The notes under the pieces are model-generated. The model was given only the letters and a program-made list of their open reading frames with translations. It was not told where the DNA came from and searched no databases. From a virus (Duplodnaviria > Caudoviricetes): a stretch of 64,000 nt of DNA. Where the stretch lies: positions 14,388 through 78,387 of IMG/VR virus record IMGVR_UViG_3300021387_001758; one strand, given 5' to 3'. Shown piece after piece: positions 23,336 to 53,381 of this stretch; the stretch's first letter is position 1, and each line of letters starts with the position of its first letter. Position numbers and translations under genes: made by a program.

Positions 23336-23533
23336 TCCTTTTCCTCCAAAATAAAAAGGGTAACTTTTTCCAAAGCTACCCAAAGATATATGTATAAAGC
23401 CACTACCAATGGGTATGACTTGAATTTAATTTACTCTATTATTAAGTAAATTAAAGAAAAGGAAAGTATAAAATTTTAAAAACTTTTTTTCAATGGAGCT
23501 GGTGGAGGGACTTGAACCCCCAACCTAGTGATT

Positions 23534-24119
23534 CATACCACTACAGTTTTCACTGCCACTAAAATGTTTGTGGTCTGGACTTTCTCTTAGCCATAGATTA
23601 ATCCTTAGGCTCTCCCTGTAAAGTCTCTACACACGACTATTTGTCTTGCTCGGGATTAGCATATAATGAATATTGTTTACGGTCTTTTCTACCCTTTCCT
23701 TTATTCGCGCCTTTGTAGGTTGCGGTTAAAGAATGACAGTTAGGACACAAAACTATTAAATTATCTTCAGAATTATTTTGATAGTTACCATCAATATGTT
23801 CAATCTCTAATGGTAAAGTATTAGTAAAAGGATTAATTTCACCCCATCCGCAACGCGCACATTTATAATTATATTTCTCAAACAAATATCGCTTCAGATG
23901 TTCGGAAATGCCATATTTCCCTCTTAATCCAGTTTCTTGACCTTTTTTCCAACGAGTTACCCATTGTTTATGTTGGTAATCCATTTGGCATTGATTGCAA
24001 CAATATTTAGTTTGTCTACCAGTTAATTCTTTTCCGCAATTTAAACATTTCATTACTTAGCCTTCCCCGAATTAGGGGAGTGTTCACTTATAAGTTTCCT
24101 TATAAGGTTGCAATAATTT
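23534..24119 (-). mobile_element. Group I intron (586 nt) with HNH ORF
   Basis: P AATTCGGGGAA, Q AATCCCGAG, R GTAGAGACT, S AAGAGAAAGTCC; terminal G; exon TTGT pairs with GCAA. Confidence 0.9.
23637..24053 (-). CDS. Intron-encoded HNH homing endonuclease
   Basis: CARC...EHIDGNYQNN...LCPNCH. Confidence 0.85.
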   Translation of the reverse strand: MKCLNCGKELTGRQTKYCCNQCQMDYQHKQWVTRWKKGQETGLRGKYGISEHLKRYLFEKYNYKCARCGWGEINPFTNTLPLEIEHIDGNYQNNSEDNLIVLCPNCHSLTATYKGANKGKGRKDRKQYSLYANPEQDK

Positions 24120-24190
24120 ACAAATCACTTGCGCTACCAATTGCGCCACACCAGCACACTTAAGGGTAAGCTAGCTACTTCCTACCCTTA

Positions 24191-24283
24191 TGGTGGTTAT
24201 TTTTACTCACTACTTGCAGAGTACCTCAACCCTGGTTTTACCGACTCCAGGGGAAACGGGTGGCTGACTTTCGTAAAATAACC
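24191..24283 (-). ncRNA. 93-nt CCA-ended tRNA-like RNA with non-canonical interior
   Basis: GGTTATTTTAC.../...GTAAAAATAACC-ACCA closing stem; internal hairpins CCCTGG/CCAGGG and TACT/AGTA. Confidence 0.4.
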
Positions 24284-24340
24284 AAACTACTTGGGGAGCC
24301 ACAACCTATCCCTAGCACAGACAAAAGTCCTACTGGGTAA

Positions 24341-24415
24341 TGGCGGGAAGGATAGGACTCGAACCTACAACCTCGTGCTTAACAGGCACTTGCTCCACCA
24401 TTGAGCTACCAACCC
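24341..24415 (-). tRNA. tRNA-Asn(GTT)
   Basis: Cloverleaf, loop CTGTTAA, CCA. Confidence 0.92.
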
Positions 24416-24425
24416 ACGCTCAAGT

Positions 24426-24566
24426 CTATTCAGACTGCGCGCCTTCAAGATTTCTAATCTGTCTCTTCAGTTTCCTCACTACACCAGAACTCTCACCGTT
24501 CTTTCCGTTCGACTGAAGAAGATGCAGCCTATGTTTAAGACCTTCAATAGATTTTCCCTTTGCCAT
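24426..24566 (-). CDS. Small basic protein (46 aa)
   Basis: Manual ORF MAKGKSIEGLKHRLHLLQ..., AAGGAG RBS. Confidence 0.6.
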   Translation of the reverse strand: MAKGKSIEGLKHRLHLLQSNGKNGESSGVVRKLKRQIRNLEGAQSE

Positions 24567-24614
24567 AAAATAAACTCCTTTCTTAAAGAGCAAACACCCT
24601 TTAATAAATATATA

Positions 24615-25200
24615 ATTAAGAGTCTTTCAACTTACTAACTACTAACGCCACTATATTTGACTAATGGGGAGACATACCCAAGCAATAAGGAGCGACCCTA
24701 TTACTATATGCCCCGCTTGCGCCAAGCCCATAGAGGACTGATTACCTCTACCTTTCAGGTGATATTCGGCAATTTTTTAGAAAAGCAATCTCTCTATCTT
24801 CCTTGCTTCATACCAAATAAATTAATATGCTTGAGTCTTCGCAGATTTACCCTACTCGGAGTTGACATACAAACGGTTATACACAGATTTCTCTGCTTCA
24901 ACTGCAAAACGAATTATTGGCATTTCTTAGGTTTGCCCCTGGGCAGCCAACCCAAAACCTAACTAAGATTCGGCGTTTGCTATTAACAAGCGCTTCTATT
25001 ATTTCGCCCGTTCGTATTCTGTCTTTAGCTCACGTTAGCAGTAGCGCTACACCTTTGGTTTCGGCTTCCAACCTACACGATAGTCGTCACCGCCTATCGC
25101 ACAGCCCCTTAACGAGTATCCCCGTTTCTATGGACTGACCGCCCTTTCGGGTTGTTTCGGTGTACCTCAGCACTGCAATCAGCAACTCTTCACTGAGTTC
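24615..25200 (-). ncRNA. Candidate large structured ncRNA (about 580 nt; ROOL/GOLLD-like context)
   Basis: No credible ORF; several GNRA-capped hairpins; sigmaA promoter upstream; lies within the tRNA array. Confidence 0.55.
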
Positions 25201-25423
25201 TTATTTATATATTTATTAAAGAGTGTTTCTCCTTTCTTTACCTTATATAAATATTATACCGAAAATTTGGATTTTCGTCAAATTTTCAGAAATATTTTTC
25301 TCTAAAAATTTTATCTTGTTTAAAGGCTTTTGTTTATCGGTACGCCACAAGAGCCTTAACTCCCGCCACTACCCTACGTTTACCGTACAGACCCTCTCAA
25401 GCGAGCGCCAGTTAGTGGATTGA

Positions 25424-25498
25424 TGGCTACGGCGGCTGGGTTCGAACCAGCGAATGACGGAGTCAAAGTCCGTTGTGTTACCACTTCACCACGCCGCA
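25424..25498 (-). tRNA. tRNA-Gln(TTG)
   Basis: Cloverleaf, loop CTTTGAC. Confidence 0.92.
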
Positions 25499-25643
25499 AT
25501 ATAAGTGGCATATTTTCCCCATATGCCGGAAGGGCGAGTTTAACGGCCCTCGCGCCGCCTATTGATTATGCCCTCAACAGGATAAGAGCTGTGGTGCGCC
25601 TGACTGGAGTCGAACCAGCACGATCTCACAATCGAGGGATTTT

Positions 25644-26381
25644 CCTGCTACTCCATGTTGCCATGGCCGCGTCACCGCGTTGTAGTCTGGACTTTCTCTT
25701 CACCATGCGTTAATACGTTTAGGTGCGCGCCGTCAAGTCTCTACACGTTCCTCATTTGAGGCTTCGCTCGGGATTGTCCACGTGGGAGTTTCCCCGAATT
25801 TGACGCGATTCACATGGGAGTTTCCAACCCAAGTGCTCTATTTTATATTTTTGGTTTTATATGTATCAGTAAAATAATGACAATTAGGACAAAGTATTTC
25901 GAGATTATCTAAATGATTATTATTTTTATTGCCATCTTTATGATGTAACTCTAATGGAATAGGATTACCCAACCACTCAGTCAAGCCACAACGGCAACAT
26001 TTTTTCTCGAAAAATCCTTCGGCAAATAATCTATTTCTTAGTTTAAAAGAAGTAATTGCTTGTTCATTATTCAAATATTTTTCTATTGGAGTTCGATATT
26101 TTCCAATATTTTTTGTGTGTGCTTGACCAGTAAAATGAGAAGTATCAAAATTATATTTCTCACACATCTCTTTTATAGTCTTAATAGCAGAACCACCATC
26201 TGGATTATATCCTACTTTATTAGCTAACTCTCTAAAAGATTCACTCTCAGCACACATTACTGATAACTGTTCAACAGTAAATTTTTCATACTTTTTCATA
26301 CCTTTTCTCCTCTTATCTCTCTACTTATAAGTAGAAAAAAGGCAGACTAAATATAAAAAATTAAACCAAACCTATATCGAA
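25644..26381 (-). mobile_element. Group I intron (738 nt) with HNH ORF in the 5' (P1-loop) region
   Basis: AAATTCGGGGAA, AATCCCGAG, GTAGAGACT and AAGAGAAAGTCC core elements all downstream of the ORF; terminal G. Confidence 0.88.
25838..26299 (-). CDS. Intron-encoded HNH homing endonuclease
   Basis: CCRC...LELHHKDGNKNNN...LCPNCH. Confidence 0.85.
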   Translation of the reverse strand: MKKYEKFTVEQLSVMCAESESFRELANKVGYNPDGGSAIKTIKEMCEKYNFDTSHFTGQAHTKNIGKYRTPIEKYLNNEQAITSFKLRNRLFAEGFFEKKCCRCGLTEWLGNPIPLELHHKDGNKNNNHLDNLEILCPNCHYFTDTYKTKNIK

Positions 26382-26422
26382 AAGTCCCTTGCGTCTGCCT
26401 ATTCCGCCACAAGCGCGCAGTT

Positions 26423-26671
26423 CTATTCATCAAAGAACTTCCAAATCGGATTCACAAAATCATAATCCCGATTAGAAACTCTATAATTGCCAAACAACTT
26501 TACCAACTCGTCAAGCGTTCCACCGATTTTCAAATAATCTTTCATGGCTTCAAAAGCCTTACTCTGCGCGGCGATCTTATTCTTTTCCTTGTCTTTGAAC
26601 TGCTTTTCTGCAGCAAGGCAATCCTCAACTGTATCGTACTTCTTTCCGGTAATTTCACTTACAACATACAT
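26423..26671 (-). CDS. Hypothetical protein (82 aa)
   Basis: MYVVSEITGKKY... after GAGGAG RBS. Confidence 0.65.
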   Translation of the reverse strand: MYVVSEITGKKYDTVEDCLAAEKQFKDKEKNKIAAQSKAFEAMKDYLKIGGTLDELVKLFGNYRVSNRDYDFVNPIWKFFDE

Positions 26672-26705
26672 ATTGGTTTTCTCCTCACTAACAAGACAAT
26701 AATAC

Positions 26706-26786
26706 TGGTGGAGTCGATGGGAATCGAACCCATGTCCGAAACACTGCACTTTGGCCTTGATGCCCCGTCGAAACCATTCCGACCCC
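26706..26786 (-). ncRNA. ssrA: Miniature tmRNA: tRNA-like domain only (81 nt)
   Basis: 5' GGGGTCGGAATGGTTTCGACGGGG and 3' TTTCGGACATGGGTTCGATTCCCATCGACTCCACCA; G3:U70 pair; short loop in place of the mRNA-like domain. Confidence 0.8.
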
Positions 26787-26844
26787 ATAGAAGAAGGAGC
26801 TGAACGCTCCTTTCTTATATACCATATAGACAATGGTACGTAGG

Positions 26845-27265
26845 TGGTGAAACCTAAGAAATAAAAAATGGTTTAATTCTGATTCCGTAAGGTGGGTCGC
26901 AGTATCCTTCTGCGACTAAACCAATAGGTTACTTTGCCTTCTTATTTGGTCAAGGTGCGTTTGCCACAAGGCCACATATCAATCAATGAAAGCATAGTCG
27001 AACTAACTAAATCTTATGAGACAATTGCCGGTGGTAGTTTACCTATTAAAATCCATGTTAACGCATCTGCTACTGACCATCTGAGTAGCGCAGGGCTTGA
27101 CTTACATCGGCTCAAGCATACCTTGGAGAATTTAAGAACTAATCCTCAACCGCAATTCTCCTTACGATTACGTTCCGTCCGTAGACAACGCTTAGCCAGA
27201 TTAGTAATTTGCTGAATTTATATCGTTAGTCAGCGACTCCGTACACGTTTAGGGTCGAGTAAAGA
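26845..27265 (-). ncRNA. Candidate structured ncRNA block (about 420 nt)
   Basis: No credible ORF; hairpins GCTTGA/TCAAGC, GCTACT/AGTAGC, GTCGCAG/CTGCGAC. Confidence 0.4.
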
Positions 27266-27269
27266 CCAA

Positions 27270-27344
27270 TGGTTGCGGAAGTAGGATTCGAACCTACGAC
27301 TTTTAGGTTATGAGCCTAAATTGCTACCGCTGCATCATTCCGCC
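27270..27344 (-). tRNA. tRNA-Met(CAT), 1:72 mismatch (initiator-like)
   Basis: Loop CTCATAA; G1:A72 mismatch. Confidence 0.85.
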
Positions 27345-27349
27345 ATAAA

Positions 27350-27735
27350 GGAACTTTGGACGCATCCTTAGTTCCTAGGCTTACTCCGAAGAGATAGGCC
27401 TCTATTCTTCATTTGCTACAACTTCGAGTTCGTTCCACGGATCCTTTCTCTATATTTCCGAAATTCTTGTGGTGATCAAATCCACGGTGAGTATTGTTGT
27501 ATCGCATCCGTCCCTTTCGGAGACGCGACCTGTTGCTTCAGGCGACTCTCTCATAGACATTGTTCCGGAACTGCCTATGTTGGATTGTTGTATTTTATTG
27601 CAAACGCACTCCCACTTTACTCAAGGCTTGTGACTTGCACGGCCTAAACCTCTGTTTAAGCTTGATGGCGTGGTTACGTTTAGCATCGAGAGGGGAGAAA
27701 AGGAAAGGAAGTAAGATTTATCTCCCCTCTCTTAA
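27350..27735 (-). ncRNA. Candidate structured ncRNA block (about 380 nt)
   Basis: Follows a TTGACA-N17-TATAAT promoter; 5' hairpin GAGAGGGGAG/CTCCCCTCTC; GNRA hairpin GTCTCC-GAAA-GGGAC. Confidence 0.4.
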
Positions 27736-27786
27736 CTTTCTATATATATTATAGCAAAGTTTTATAATTTTGTCAAAATTTCTTTC

Positions 27787-28017
27787 TTAGAGTGCGGCCC
27801 ACTCATTACAAGCATCATATCTATCGTCAGCTTGATCTTCCCAAGCGAACCGAATTCTCGCGCGAAGGTCTTCAATGTCCTGTGCGAGTTCACCGATGAT
27901 CCATTCATCATCTTCATCTCCACGACCCCTTGCATCCTCAAGTGCAAACTCGAACTCTTCTTCCTTCATTTCAAGTTCCTTCTGGAGCATTATCGGATCT
28001 TCATAGTCTCTATACAT
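27787..28017 (-). CDS. Small acidic hypothetical protein
   Basis: ORF with AGAAGG RBS. Confidence 0.6.
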   Translation of the reverse strand: MYRDYEDPIMLQKELEMKEEEFEFALEDARGRGDEDDEWIIGELAQDIEDLRARIRFAWEDQADDRYDACNEWAAL

Positions 28018-28210
28018 TTATAACCTTCTTTCTTAGTTTAATTTTGAGAGTTGAACGCGGCGTCTCGTTCGGATTAGTGGGAATTGAACCCTTGGCTCTT
28101 ACCTACCATAAGTTTTTAACTTCGAGCCTTCTCTTACTTTTTCCTCTCTCTTAACTTTCTATATATATTATATAAGAAAATTATAAATATTTCAAATTAT
28201 TTTTTATAAA

Positions 28211-28287
28211 TGGCGACGCTGACGGGACTCGAACCCGTGACCTTCAGCGTGACAGGCTGACATTCTAACCAACTGAACTACAGCGCC
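28211..28287 (-). tRNA. tRNA-Asp(GTC)
   Basis: Cloverleaf with CCA. Confidence 0.93.
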
Positions 28288-28347
28288 AAATAATGGGAGG
28301 GGTCCTACATCTCCCGCTTTTCCACAGAACAATTCTCTGGCAGGACC

Positions 28348-28421
28348 TGGAGCGGATAACGAGAATCGAACTCGTATTCTCAGCTTGGAAGGCTGACGCT
28401 CTACCATTAAACTACATCCGC
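28348..28421 (-). tRNA. tRNA-Gly(TCC)
   Basis: Cloverleaf with CCA. Confidence 0.93.
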
Positions 28422-28430
28422 ATATAAGTT

Positions 28431-28507
28431 TGGTACTGCGACTGAGACTCGAACTCAGAACCTACGGATTAGAAGTCCGTTGCGCTCTCCAATTACGCTA
28501 CCGCAGC
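28431..28507 (-). tRNA. tRNA-Arg(TCT)
   Basis: Cloverleaf with CCA. Confidence 0.92.
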
Positions 28508-28510
28508 ATA

Positions 28511-28585
28511 TGGCATAGGCTCAAGGACTTGAACCTCAATTAGTAGTTTTGGAGACTACCGTGCTACCAATTACACTAAGCCTAC
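28511..28585 (-). tRNA. tRNA-Trp(CCA)
   Basis: Cloverleaf with CCA. Confidence 0.92.
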
Positions 28586-28589
28586 ACAA

Positions 28590-28665
28590 TGGTGGAGAAT
28601 AGGAGACTCGAACTCCTGACCCCCTGCGTGCAAAGCAGGTGCTCTCCCATCTGAGCTAATTCCCC
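28590..28665 (-). tRNA. tRNA-Ala(TGC)
   Basis: Cloverleaf, G3:U70. Confidence 0.93.
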
Positions 28666-28671
28666 AAAAAA

Positions 28672-28747
28672 TGGTGCGGGTGACACGACTTGAACGTGCG
28701 GCCCCTTAGTCCCAAACCAAGCGCTCTACCAACTGAGCTACACCCAC
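28672..28747 (-). tRNA. tRNA-Pro(TGG)
   Basis: Cloverleaf with CCA. Confidence 0.92.
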
Positions 28748-28751
28748 AAAA

Positions 28752-28840
28752 TGGCGGAGGATGTAGGATTCGAACCCACGGGGCTTTCGCCACAACAGAT
28801 TTCAAGTCTGCGCCGTTATGACCAACTTCGGTAATCCTCC
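28752..28840 (-). tRNA. tRNA-Ser(TGA)
   Basis: Cloverleaf with long variable arm. Confidence 0.92.
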
Positions 28841-28843
28841 AAA

Positions 28844-28924
28844 TGGTGGGCAACCAGGGACTCGAACCCTGACCCGAAGACTAGTTCCTAAGACTAGCGC
28901 GCCTGCCAATTACGCCAGTTGCCC
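28844..28924 (-). tRNA. tRNA-Leu(TAG)
   Basis: Cloverleaf with variable arm. Confidence 0.92.
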
Positions 28925-28938
28925 AAATTAATTTTTAA

Positions 28939-29015
28939 TGGTGGGCATGGATGGATTTGAACCATCGACCTTCCGCTTATCAGACGGATGCGCTAACCAA
29001 CTGCGCTACACGCCC
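28939..29015 (-). tRNA. tRNA-Ile(GAT)
   Basis: Cloverleaf with CCA. Confidence 0.93.
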
Positions 29016-29018
29016 ACA

Positions 29019-29093
29019 TGGTAGGGGGAGAAGGAGTTGAACCTTCCTCAAACGCTTATAAGACGCTTAGACTAACCGATGTCCTATCCCCCC
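29019..29093 (-). tRNA. tRNA-Ile(TAT)
   Basis: Loop CTTATAA, A73, CCA. Confidence 0.85.
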
Positions 29094-29103
29094 GTCAGAT
29101 TTT

Positions 29104-29179
29104 TGGTGCGCCGCCCGAGACTCGAACTCGGCACGCCGTGATTAAAAGTCACGTGCTCTTCCTGATGAGCTAGCGGCGC
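29104..29179 (-). tRNA. tRNA-Lys(TTT)
   Basis: Cloverleaf with CCA. Confidence 0.92.
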
Positions 29180-29339
29180 ATAAATTCCCAGACGCTAATC
29201 TGAGAATTAAGTTTAATTTGTTAGCGCAAATTAAACTTTTTCGTGTTATTTCGGGAAACACCGAAAGCTATCTACTTCGTTGTAGCGTCACTTCCAAAAC
29301 CCGCTAGTACTAACTACTACATCTTTTACGATGTAGAAA

Positions 29340-29416
29340 TGGTGACGGTACACGGACTCGAACCGTGACTCTACAGGATGAAAACCTGTTGTGTTGACCT
29401 GTTACACTATACCGCC
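29340..29416 (-). tRNA. tRNA-Glu(TTC)
   Basis: Cloverleaf with CCA. Confidence 0.92.
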
Positions 29417-29480
29417 ATAACTTTCTTTTTTCATCGTATATATATTATATATAAAATTTTTCAGAAAATCAAATTATAAA

Positions 29481-29567
29481 TGGTGGAGGGAAGTGGATTT
29501 GAACCACTGAAGGCATAGCCAACGGATTTACAGTCCGCCCCTTTTGACCAGACTTAGGTATCCCTCC
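29481..29567 (-). tRNA. tRNA-Tyr(GTA)
   Basis: Cloverleaf with variable arm. Confidence 0.92.
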
Positions 29568-29576
29568 TTATTCTAA

Positions 29577-29651
29577 TGGGTGGATGTAACGGTAACGCTC
29601 CGTTGTCTCCTGGGCCACAACCAGGCGCTCTACTTTTGAGCTAACAACCAC
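29577..29651 (-). tRNA. tRNA-His(GTG) with G-1 and atypical T-loop
   Basis: Loop TTGTGGC, C73, T-loop AGCGTTA. Confidence 0.8.
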
Positions 29652-29656
29652 ATAAC

Positions 29657-29732
29657 TGGTGGCTTAGGGTGGAGTCGAACCACCGACGCGCGGATTTTCA
29701 GTCCACCGCTCTACCTCCTGAGCTACCAAGCC
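29657..29732 (-). tRNA. tRNA-Phe(GAA)
   Basis: Cloverleaf with CCA. Confidence 0.92.
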
Positions 29733-29736
29733 ACGA

Positions 29737-29812
29737 TGGTGCGCGATACAGGACTTGAACCTGTGACTTTCTGCTTGTAAGGCAGGTACTCTCCCAGCTG
29801 AGTTAATCGCGC
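29737..29812 (-). tRNA. tRNA-Val(TAC)
   Basis: Cloverleaf with CCA. Confidence 0.93.
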
Positions 29813-29815
29813 ATA

Positions 29816-29890
29816 TGGTACTCCGTGTAGGATTCGAACCCACGTAAACTGCATCCGTAGTGCAGCGCCCATCCTCTAGACCAACGGAGC
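29816..29890 (-). tRNA. tRNA-Arg(ACG)
   Basis: Cloverleaf with CCA. Confidence 0.9.
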
Positions 29891-29894
29891 AAAA

Positions 29895-29989
29895 TGGCGG
29901 GAAGAGAGGGATTCGAACCCTCGCGCCGTATCTCTACGACCTAATCGCTTAGCAGGCGATCCTCTTAAGCCAGACTTGAGTATCTCCCC
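29895..29989 (-). tRNA. tRNA-Ser(GCT)
   Basis: Cloverleaf with long variable arm. Confidence 0.92.
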
Positions 29990-30295
29990 TTATTTTCTAC
30001 GACAACATTTCTCCCAATAATTTAACCAATCTTCGAGAGTAGGATAGTTAGTATAAATATAACCACTCAAAGCCCAACTTTCGTATTCTCGCTTAGCTTC
30101 TTCTTTTGTCCAACGCCAGCAATAATCAGAAATATCATATGACTCTGTAATTCGCTTATAGTAGGACGGAGACTGCGCGCCGTCAGAATTTTTATTCATG
30201 CGTCTAACTCGTCTACTTGCAAGCTTTTTATTCTGATGTGTTGAGTTTCTTTTATGGTCATTAACCCAGGGATTTTTCTTATAGCTCCGAGACAT
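29990..30295 (-). CDS. Hypothetical phage protein (MSRSYKK family)
   Basis: ORF track; start at second Met. Confidence 0.65.
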   Translation of the reverse strand: MSRSYKKNPWVNDHKRNSTHQNKKLASRRVRRMNKNSDGAQSPSYYKRITESYDISDYCWRWTKEEAKREYESWALSGYIYTNYPTLEDWLNYWEKCCRRK

Positions 30296-30300
30296 TAAAC

Positions 30301-30807
30301 TCACTCCAATCTATGAATAAAATATACAATAGGACTATTATAAATCCATCCATAAAGATACCAAGGATCGTCCGCTTCTAGTTCTATGTCAGTTTCTATA
30401 GGGCCTCGTCCACATTTTTCCTGCCATTTTCCATTACGAAAAACTCGAAAATGAAAATCGGTAGAGATGTAGAAAGAGTCGTTATCATATAAACCGACTC
30501 TAAAAGCAATTAACTCCTCATTCTCTTTTTCCTTATACTGAGAAGGATTATCAATAAAAATTATCTCATCTCCAAAATCTTTATCTATTCCTTCAGTACA
30601 CCTATCTAAAAGCTCGATCAACAACTCATCTAAGGTGTAATCACCAGTATCCCAAAGATCATTCACAAAATCATCATTAGGCTCATCCATCCCATCATCG
30701 GGTTGGTACCATTCTTCAATGTTGAGGGCAAAGCTGCCGCAATTAGTATCTTTTTGATTTTTTCTAAAAAAATTTTTGTCTGTATTAGTCGTGTAGTATA
30801 AACTCAT
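30301..30807 (-). CDS. Hypothetical protein, possible papain/NlpC-like Cys-His fold
   Basis: TNCGSFALN...DFHFRV...W.EKCG pattern. Confidence 0.4.
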   Translation of the reverse strand: MSLYYTTNTDKNFFRKNQKDTNCGSFALNIEEWYQPDDGMDEPNDDFVNDLWDTGDYTLDELLIELLDRCTEGIDKDFGDEIIFIDNPSQYKEKENEELIAFRVGLYDNDSFYISTDFHFRVFRNGKWQEKCGRGPIETDIELEADDPWYLYGWIYNSPIVYFIHRLE

Positions 30808-51929: not shown

Positions 51930-53381
51930 TTAAACTGTAACTACACATTTAATTGTAATCGCACTAGCTGCTGCCGAAGCTACTTCAAAAGCAGTTCCAT
52001 CATAATCTACTACAACCGCTTCTCCGCCTTGATAAGCTTGGAAAGTTATTAACTTACTTGCCACACCAGATGCGCTGACTGACGTTTGCCCTTGCGCGAT
52101 TGTAAGTGTTGTATATGTAATAGCTCCTTGTGATGCTGCTTCTAAGTTATCAAGTGTGGTTTTATCAGCCGCCGTCATTAAACCATCATTGGTTTGCGTA
52201 ACAGCTGGTATTGTAACCTCACCAGTTAAAGCAGTAGCAGATGCACCAAGTTTAATACCTGTTACATAATTTCCAAGTAAACCAGTAATATCCGCTTTAG
52301 TTGCTTCTGCTTTACCATTAACATGACCGAATTTATCAGTCATAATTTTATAAAGTTTAGCTGTAGCTACTGCGGAAGCCCCACTTGGTATAGTGTGATT
52401 TACTGTAAATGTTCCGGATGTAGTAATCGGACCCCCACTTACAGTGATTCCTCCATCTGTATTACTAATTCCCACGCTAGTAACTGTACCACTTGGTTCG
52501 TCACCGGATGGAATCAGTACCCACGCAGATCCATCGGAAATAAATGTATCGCCTACATCTGCAGCCTGTGAAGCATATGTTCCAGCTGTTATAACCTTAT
52601 ATGTCCAGCCTTCATTAGAAGATGAAGCGGTTGGAAGAGTAGTAATTGTACCACCGGTACCGAGCGAACCCTTGAATACCATCGGTTCTGGAAGAGCATC
52701 AACAGCATCATCTACATATTTTTTAGTTGCAGCATGAAGATTCGCTGTCGGCGCGCCGCTTAAGGTTAATGCACCAGTTAAAGTACCACCACTTAAAGGT
52801 AAATAAGAAGCAAGTGCCGCATTAGTTATATAACCTGCGTCGTTGGTAAATGCAGAAACATCCGTTGGCACGGTTGGTATTTGTAGTGTGTTACTTCCCA
52901 AAGTAATTGTGTCATTCTGAATTTTTGCATCAGTAATCCCATACCCAGCAAGTGTTGTAGCTGCAGTAGCTTTGGCCTCGATAGCCGCTTTAACTGTGGT
53001 GCTGTCACTAGATGACATTGTTAGGTCAGATGCATAAGCAGCTCCTGTGGTTTTAATATGACCATGACCATCTGTAGTAATCTTTTTTATTCCGGCGGTA
53101 CTAACAGCTGATGTTGTTTCAATATCGCTATGATTAATTGTAATCGCACCCGTTGAAGCAGAAACAGAAATATCTGTTCCACCTGTTATACTCGTAACAC
53201 CGCCATCATCTACAACTGGAACCCACTTAGTTCCATTATAGTAGTAAAATACATGATCTGCGGTATTATGATAAATTTGACCTTCTACCGGATTAGACGG
53301 CGCGGCCGCGAGATTTTGTACCCTCGCATTTTGTAATTCATTCTTATTTAAATTAAGATTAACTAAATAATCCATTCTCAA
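51930..53381 (-). CDS. Tail fibre-like protein
   Basis: L.LNKNELQNARVQNL N-terminus; YLPLSGGTLTG; AATKKYVD. Confidence 0.7.
   Translation of the reverse strand: MRMDYLVNLNLNKNELQNARVQNLAAAPSNPVEGQIYHNTADHVFYYYNGTKWVPVVDDGGVTSITGGTDISVSASTGAITINHSDIETTSAVSTAGIKKITTDGHGHIKTTGAAYASDLTMSSSDSTTVKAAIEAKATAATTLAGYGITDAKIQNDTITLGSNTLQIPTVPTDVSAFTNDAGYITNAALASYLPLSGGTLTGALTLSGAPTANLHAATKKYVDDAVDALPEPMVFKGSLGTGGTITTLPTASSSNEGWTYKVITAGTYASQAADVGDTFISDGSAWVLIPSGDEPSGTVTSVGISNTDGGITVSGGPITTSGTFTVNHTIPSGASAVATAKLYKIMTDKFGHVNGKAEATKADITGLLGNYVTGIKLGASATALTGEVTIPAVTQTNDGLMTAADKTTLDNLEAASQGAITYTTLTIAQGQTSVSASGVASKLITFQAYQGGEAVVVDYDGTAFEVASAAASAITIKCVVTV

Follow-up and report, generated by a model that had tools for sequence, protein, structure and literature searches.

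A ROOL RNA gene in the tRNA array of an uncultured gut or rumen phage

What does a stretch of DNA without any evident gene, set among the tRNA genes of a phage, encode? The phage in question is known from a 78,387-base virus record in IMG/VR, estimated by CheckV to be 66% complete, which is a fragment of an uncultured gut or rumen phage. The whole stretch of its DNA that was analysed, 64 kb in length, is here called the window. The genes of this phage encode a tail protein with a Sipho_tail domain, HNH endonucleases, topoisomerase II subunits, an ATP-dependent ligase and a phosphoesterase, and a 1994-amino-acid ORF is probably the tape measure. An earlier, sequence-only reading had remarked on about 580 nucleotides at positions 24615-25200, described them as free of ORFs, and suggested that they encode a large ornate RNA, of the ROOL/GOLLD class, in a phage tRNA cluster, while leaving the family unassigned. 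The class proposed is right, and Rfam supplies the family, which is ROOL. The gene and the tRNAs on either side of it, in the order in which they lie on their common strand, are as follows.

25424-25498, minus strand: tRNA-Gln(UUG), the upstream neighbour of the ROOL gene
24602-25221, minus strand: the ROOL RNA gene, 620 nucleotides, spanning all 574 Rfam model positions
24341-24415, minus strand: tRNA-Asn(GUU), the downstream neighbour of the ROOL gene

In an Rfam scan of the 64-kb window, the gene matches the ROOL family (RF03087) with 305.7 bits, compared with a cut-off of 99.1, and an E-value of 2.4e-69. The match is untruncated, extending from model position 1 to 574 of 574 with the terminal closing helix included. 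The location given by the sequence-only reading therefore holds, and its length needs a small correction: the element is slightly longer than noted, because an AU-rich terminal helix closes 24602-25221.

The whole window was scanned against Rfam 15 at gathering thresholds, where ROOL is the sole large-RNA match, and positions 23400-30400 were rescanned at E <= 0.1. A search of the complete 78-kb record returns this ROOL with the same result and no other, and within the window an nhmmer profile built from 63 ROOL sequences matches at this one place, also when E <= 10 is allowed. A second ROOL considered at 26868-27268 is not supported, as that region has neither an Rfam match (E <= 0.1) nor an nhmmer match (E <= 10).

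The phage tRNA-array context is also common to GOLLD, which would favor assigning the stretch to another class of large ornate RNA (GOLLD, OLE or raiA), or regarding it as a novel class with no more than a resemblance to ROOL. However, GOLLD, OLE and raiA give zero matches both in the whole window at the gathering threshold and in 23400-30400 at E <= 0.1, whereas the ROOL match runs the full length of its model. The comparison with the ROOL, GOLLD and OLE models that had been suggested earlier is thus decided in favor of ROOL, and the probability of another class is negligible. The sequence-only reading had also held that a strong Rfam match would make the RNA known rather than new. Because the ROOL match is strong and full-length, the stretch adds another example to an already catalogued family, and is not a new kind of RNA. 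With a probability of roughly 96%, positions 24602-25221 of the minus strand are a functional ROOL RNA gene of an uncultured gut or rumen phage. This settles the annotation of the 620-nucleotide gap in the phage tRNA array as a ROOL gene.

Relatives were collected by searching viral contigs, one genome per species, and metagenome contigs for motifs that are invariant in the first few ROOLs. The first DNA motif patterns returned 8 loci, none of which is a ROOL, and a looser pattern returned 120 loci that mostly reflect chance. More than 100 loci with ROOL nhmmer matches were gathered from viral contigs, species genomes and metagenome contigs, which shows ROOL to be abundant in the viromes of rumen and gut. 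The subset of these that was scanned with Rfam scores 286-308 bits. The window RNA and 62 distinct full-length ROOLs from viral or metagenome contigs were then aligned with MAFFT. Near-invariant blocks, judged from the Rfam alignment together with the invariant columns of this 63-sequence alignment, are all present in the window RNA: CAGUGAAGA, GGAUAC, AAUAGA, CCAAUAA, UGAA-N4-AGAAAU-N4-GUAUAA, GAGUAG, GGUAAUCA and GGUCGCUCC.

The secondary structure can be judged in the same set of sequences. The sequence-only reading had listed six hairpins and stems, and all of them are present. Each corresponds to a ROOL helix, except that CCC-GAAA-GGG belongs to a 13-nucleotide lineage-specific insertion. 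All lie on the minus strand.

25142-25151, minus strand: CCC-GAAA-GGG mini-hairpin, within the 13-nucleotide insertion that follows model position 72
about 25079-25100, minus strand: CGAUAG/CUAUCG stem, a ROOL helix in the Rfam alignment
about 24928-24963, minus strand: UUAGGUUU/AAACCUAA stem, a ROOL helix in the Rfam alignment
about 24885-24898, minus strand: GCAGA-GAAA-UCUGU hairpin, a ROOL helix in the Rfam alignment
about 24732-24753, minus strand: UAGAGG/CCUCUA stem, a ROOL helix in the Rfam alignment
about 24713-24720, minus strand: GC-GCAA-GC hairpin, a shortened stem at model positions 447-460

Moving the Rfam consensus structure onto the window RNA by way of the cmscan alignment yields 152 pairs for which both partners exist. 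The minus strand has a predicted minimum free energy of -192.5 kcal/mol, compared with -162.1 +/- 5.5 for shuffled sequences (z = -5.6), and none of 20 shuffles is as good. Covariation had been named earlier as a test of the proposed RNA, and the 63-sequence alignment contains compensatory changes on both sides in 126 of the 152 consensus pairs. Of the alignment cells at these pairs, 78.4% contain a standard pair, whereas offsetting the 3' partners by 1-3 columns lowers the figure to 40-46%. The same offset brings the covariation score down from 0.468 to 0.11-0.16, and none of 500 shuffles attains the observed value of any measure. These pairing figures are conservative, since MAFFT aligned the sequences without regard to the structure. 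RNAalifold, applied to an independent, earlier alignment of 5 sequences, predicts 125 pairs, 76 of them compensatory. The helices of the Rfam consensus are therefore kept by compensatory changes across the relatives of this ROOL.

A recognisable sequence might nonetheless belong to a decaying or inactive copy that has lost the ability to fold or to assemble. Standard pairs are formed by the window RNA at 133 of the 152 consensus pairs in the cmscan alignment, and the 19 non-standard pairs could be read as signs of decay, as could the 13-nucleotide insertion, the shortened stem at model positions 447-460, and the long branch of this RNA in the ROOL tree (0.48; the nearest relative is 67% identical). 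Some of the 19 pairs are register shifts, and the stem at model positions 137-151 is weak in the window RNA. In contrast to what decay would predict, the match is full-length and untruncated with a score on a par with those of other ROOLs, all near-invariant blocks are intact, and the family is variable at the sites of the insertions. Moreover, RNA libraries from several studies contain near-identical variants, which have 7-10 differences, and their changes do not pile up in the conserved blocks. A decayed copy is consequently very improbable, and the reading as a functional ROOL gene is retained.

Two further parts of the structure are characteristic of the family.

24763-24846, minus strand: variable linker loop of about 84 nucleotides, corresponding to the model loop at 352-425 with a 27-nucleotide insert and low conservation
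24689-24697, minus strand: GGUCGCUCC hairpin tip, the most conserved loop of the family

The linker cannot be aligned among the 62 relatives, and it sits between the 5' and 3' halves of the RNA, as is usual in the family. The GGUCGCUCC tip is kept in most of the 63 sequences, and the variants UAGCU and UCGAC also hold self-complementary cores. Going by the text of the papers, this tip probably corresponds to the loop that pairs with itself to join the two half-cages, which is called L18 by Kretsch et al. and L15 in a review.

The description of the stretch as free of ORFs is correct in substance, though not to the letter. Two ORFs can be drawn mechanically on the opposite strand, and a protein encoded there, with the RNA structure only incidental, would be another reading of the stretch.

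24657-24962, plus strand: ORF of 101 amino acids with a TTG start
24917-25138, plus strand: ORF of 73 amino acids

Frame-breaking indels occur across the 101-amino-acid frame in all 62 aligned relatives, and close variants among the RNA contigs carry indels of 1 and 2 nucleotides there. These indels imply that the opposite-strand frames are not coding. Also, the conservation takes the form of covariation between paired columns and not of codon periodicity. A protein on the opposite strand can thus be virtually dismissed as the explanation of the locus.

Positions 24300-25500 are found, whole or in part, in sequencing runs from 13 studies of gut, bovine gut and sheep gut, and RNA libraries are among these runs. 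Four RNA runs from four studies were mapped as assembled contigs onto positions 23500-26900. Three of them gave contigs whose entire length lies inside the gene (within 24641-25197) and that differ from the window at 7-10 positions: a 546-nucleotide contig on 24646-25193 in run X14, a 524-nucleotide contig on 24641-25163 in run X16, and a 550-nucleotide contig on 24647-25197 in run X20. The fourth run, X18, gave a 275-nucleotide contig identical to 24919-25193, and a second contig in which 62 nucleotides of the linker (24769-24832) are swapped for 70 other letters. Depth is zero in the flanking bins 24412-24639 and 25210-25323 in all four RNA runs.

The sequence-only reading had made a discrete transcript a test of its proposal. 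The part of that test that contigs can address is in agreement, in that the RNA contigs are confined to the gene; strand, abundance and true ends are beyond the reach of assembled contigs, and RNA libraries may contain DNA. As far as contigs allow, gene-limited cover across several rumen and gut metatranscriptome studies is what a stable RNA of ROOL size would give. The contigs end about 25 nucleotides inside the model at the 5' side and about 40-45 nucleotides inside it at the 3' side. Ends near 25193-25197 and 24641-24647 recur across three studies, although contigs cannot define ends. The AU-rich terminal helix may be either trimmed in the cell or left unassembled.

How the ROOL RNA might be transcribed is suggested by the sequence around it. 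The promoter claimed earlier is present.

25253-25281, minus strand: sigma-70-type promoter sequence TTGACG-N17-TATAAT, with 11 of 12 matches to the consensus, recognised from sequence only

Its -10 element ends about 32 nucleotides upstream of the first ROOL model position. The region contains 3 promoter-like sites, compared with 1.9 expected by chance, so this promoter is a match to the consensus and not proof of function. An upstream promoter was also considered as a feature of the whole family and was rejected, because sites with at least 10 of 12 matches occur at 7 of 56 ROOLs compared with 26 of 300 control windows. A search for a terminator-like site after the ROOL on its strand found none before a small ORF and tRNA-Asn, which means that the ROOL is probably part of a longer transcript. 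Going by position, it would be transcribed within a longer RNA that runs into the small ORF and tRNA-Asn, and it would accumulate as a stable processed product of that transcript.

The small ORF is described here for its position next to the gene, without a claim that it belongs to the element.

24426-24566, minus strand: ORF of 46 amino acids with the ribosome binding site AAAGGAG, starting 35 nucleotides after the ROOL

Homologues of 41-48 amino acids, each with its own ribosome binding site, are found in 28 of the 62 other ROOL loci, and 26 of these 28 have it on the strand of the ROOL, 224-640 nucleotides downstream of the latter. An alignment of 27 homologues has invariant residues R13, G21, G28, V29, K32 and R35 and the motif RLh.L..NGKN.DSPGV.RKLERKIR, and the product is a basic helix-loop-helix protein. 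At least 386 protein clusters, none of them named, are recovered by a profile search. The protein has no significant match in Pfam or PHROG, no tblastn match among GenBank phages, and no named cluster in the ESM Atlas. AlphaFold predicts a two-helix hairpin (mean pLDDT of 79), for which no fold match was found in the PDB. A search of viral contigs that started from the protein returned 12 loci, with a ROOL directly upstream in 8 and within 4 kb in 2 more.

Perhaps the small protein is a dedicated partner or cargo of the ROOL in its clade, in which case it may bind the cage or its internal linker, or control assembly. In favor of such a relationship, the ORF keeps its place downstream of the ROOL even though the intervening sequence differs from locus to locus: 35 nucleotides separate the two in the window, and elsewhere the gap consists of 224-330 nucleotides without an ORF, of 370-640 nucleotides with an unrelated ORF of 80-110 amino acids, or of tRNAs. 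However, in the ROOL tree the small ORF is present in 27 of the 36 scorable members of one clade, and so is missing from 9 of them, and in 0 of 14 outside it, with at least 5 changes forced. Given this one-clade distribution, conserved gene order within one phage lineage fits as well as a functional link, and the recurrence of the ORF may be no more than that. No protein partner has been reported for any ROOL (PMC12286853). We regard a dedicated partner as unlikely, and the recurrent small ORF as a cheap, testable lead in the search for one. In one subclade, a second conserved ORF of about 75-110 amino acids lies between the ROOL and the small ORF; it begins with MIISSELTGK.Y.TVEECL, which is followed by a helix rich in lysine and glutamate. 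It is carried by loci L315, L401, L356, L391, L293, L111, L310, L285, L368, L351, L292, L343, L408, L412 and L309, and is absent from the window.

The tRNA array that surrounds the gene is typical of ROOLs. The Rfam and tRNA scan finds 21 tRNAs in the window, all on the minus strand, which is also that of the ROOL. At other ROOL loci with at least 1 kb of flanking sequence, a tRNA lies within 2 kb of the ROOL in 35 of 55, and all 183 such tRNAs are on the strand of the ROOL. ROOL has been described as a phage or prophage RNA near tRNA islands (PMC12286853), and the window context agrees with this. Contig L010, which is the only phage contig with a full-length relative of the 483-amino-acid protein encoded at 51930-53381, contains no ROOL, and this fragment (27% complete) is too short to tell.

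Several other RNA-related features were observed in the vicinity. An 81-nucleotide tmRNA match at 26706-26786 on the minus strand comprises only the tRNA-like domain (75.9 bits, with 306 model positions deleted). A similar mini-tmRNA adjoins the ROOL of another contig (L172:3860-3941, minus strand; 54.4 bits), such that tmRNA and ROOL co-occur in at least two phages. A full-length sub-threshold match to the type-P1 twister ribozyme (RF03160) is located at 27603-27680 on the minus strand, with 40.1 bits versus a cut-off of 67.2 and an E-value of 3e-7. This twister-like sequence retains almost every conserved letter of the core, and its variable insert is 26 nucleotides as opposed to 17. A near-threshold match to the group I intron family (RF00028; 47.3 bits versus a cut-off of 50, E = 1e-10) occupies 25665-25854 on the minus strand, directly 3' of an HNH endonuclease ORF (25838-26299, minus strand), and a second HNH gene is found at 23637-24053. 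Elsewhere, ROOL-bearing tRNA arrays include a drum RNA (L229:7060-7158, plus strand; 52.2 bits) and a DUF3800-XI RNA (L211:4309-4355, plus strand; 40.1 bits), both above threshold. Seven metagenome loci (L371, L409, L294, L297, L413, L308 and L388) have two tandem ROOL matches on the same strand, about 100-150 nucleotides apart; each match is below full length by nhmmer, and tandem genes may represent a distinct arrangement. The phage has an RNA island that comprises the ROOL, a tag-less mini-tmRNA, putative intron-bearing tRNA genes and a twister-like motif. Such RNA-rich islands are places in which to seek the function of ROOL.

Membership in the ROOL family (RF03087; Weinberg et al. 2017 and Cousin et al. 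2017, as cited in PMC12286853) carries an expectation regarding the form of the RNA, as ROOLs are among the few natural RNAs known to build cages free of protein. Three of them have been resolved by cryo-EM, which are the env-120 octamer (9MDS), the E. faecalis octamer (9J3T) and the L. salivarius hexamer (9J6Y) (PMC12286853, PMC12990946). They assemble without protein into closed dihedral cages by means of kissing loops and A-minor contacts, and their half-shells are joined by a self-pairing loop (PMC12286853, PMC12990946). The linker, which is not conserved, is disordered and occupies the interior of the cage (PMC12286853). Proposals in the literature for the cargo, and they are proposals only, include tRNAs, ribosomal parts and others.

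By homology to these three structures, the window RNA would fold as a flat, multi-junction monomer, and the monomers would self-assemble without protein into a closed dihedral cage, either a hexamer or an octamer. Kissing loops and A-minor contacts would hold the cage together, and the variable linker would point inward. Given that the window RNA is a ROOL, assembly of this same kind is likely. The number of subunits cannot be predicted, because small differences in an apical stem switch ROOL between hexamer and octamer (PMC12990946) and the published ROOLs differ in this respect.

Published members of GOLLD share with ROOL the character of a large ornate phage RNA near tRNA genes, and likewise form RNA-only cages with an internal disordered linker. 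GOLLD is an Rfam family whose cages are 14-mers and 12-mers. It differs from the window RNA in that its sequence and secondary structure are unrelated, and it has no match in the window. OLE is also a large ornate noncoding RNA of bacteria that multimerises, in its case as a dimer. It is encoded in the chromosomes of extremophilic Firmicutes, and works with OapA/B/C and RpsU. Its chromosomal location and its work with proteins, as well as the lack of an OLE match in the window, set it apart from the window RNA.

Within its own family, the window RNA is a divergent member. Its identity to the closest of the fetched ROOLs is 65-73%, over part of its length only, and blastn against 50,697 GenBank phage records finds no match. 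Its long branch arises at the base of a well-supported clade of 42 members. Unlike most ROOLs, it carries a mini-hairpin capped by GAAA in an insert that follows model position 72; the insert site (alignment columns 100-123) is empty in most of the 62 relatives, and L211 and L320 have a GC-GAAA-GC hairpin nearby. The stem at model positions 447-460 is cut to GC-GCAA-GC, whereas other ROOLs have 20-60 nucleotides there. The weakness of the stem at model positions 137-151 is a departure from the ROOL consensus, and a near-consensus promoter of its own is a feature that most ROOLs lack. The differences within the RNA itself fall at positions that vary in the family, so none of them argues against membership. 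The window RNA agrees with known ROOLs in its full consensus secondary structure, in all of the conserved blocks, in the place of its variable linker, and in its length of about 600 nucleotides, as well as in its phage origin, co-oriented tRNA array, rumen or gut habitat and presence in RNA libraries. To these known ROOLs it adds a divergent and apparently expressed copy from a large ruminant-gut phage.
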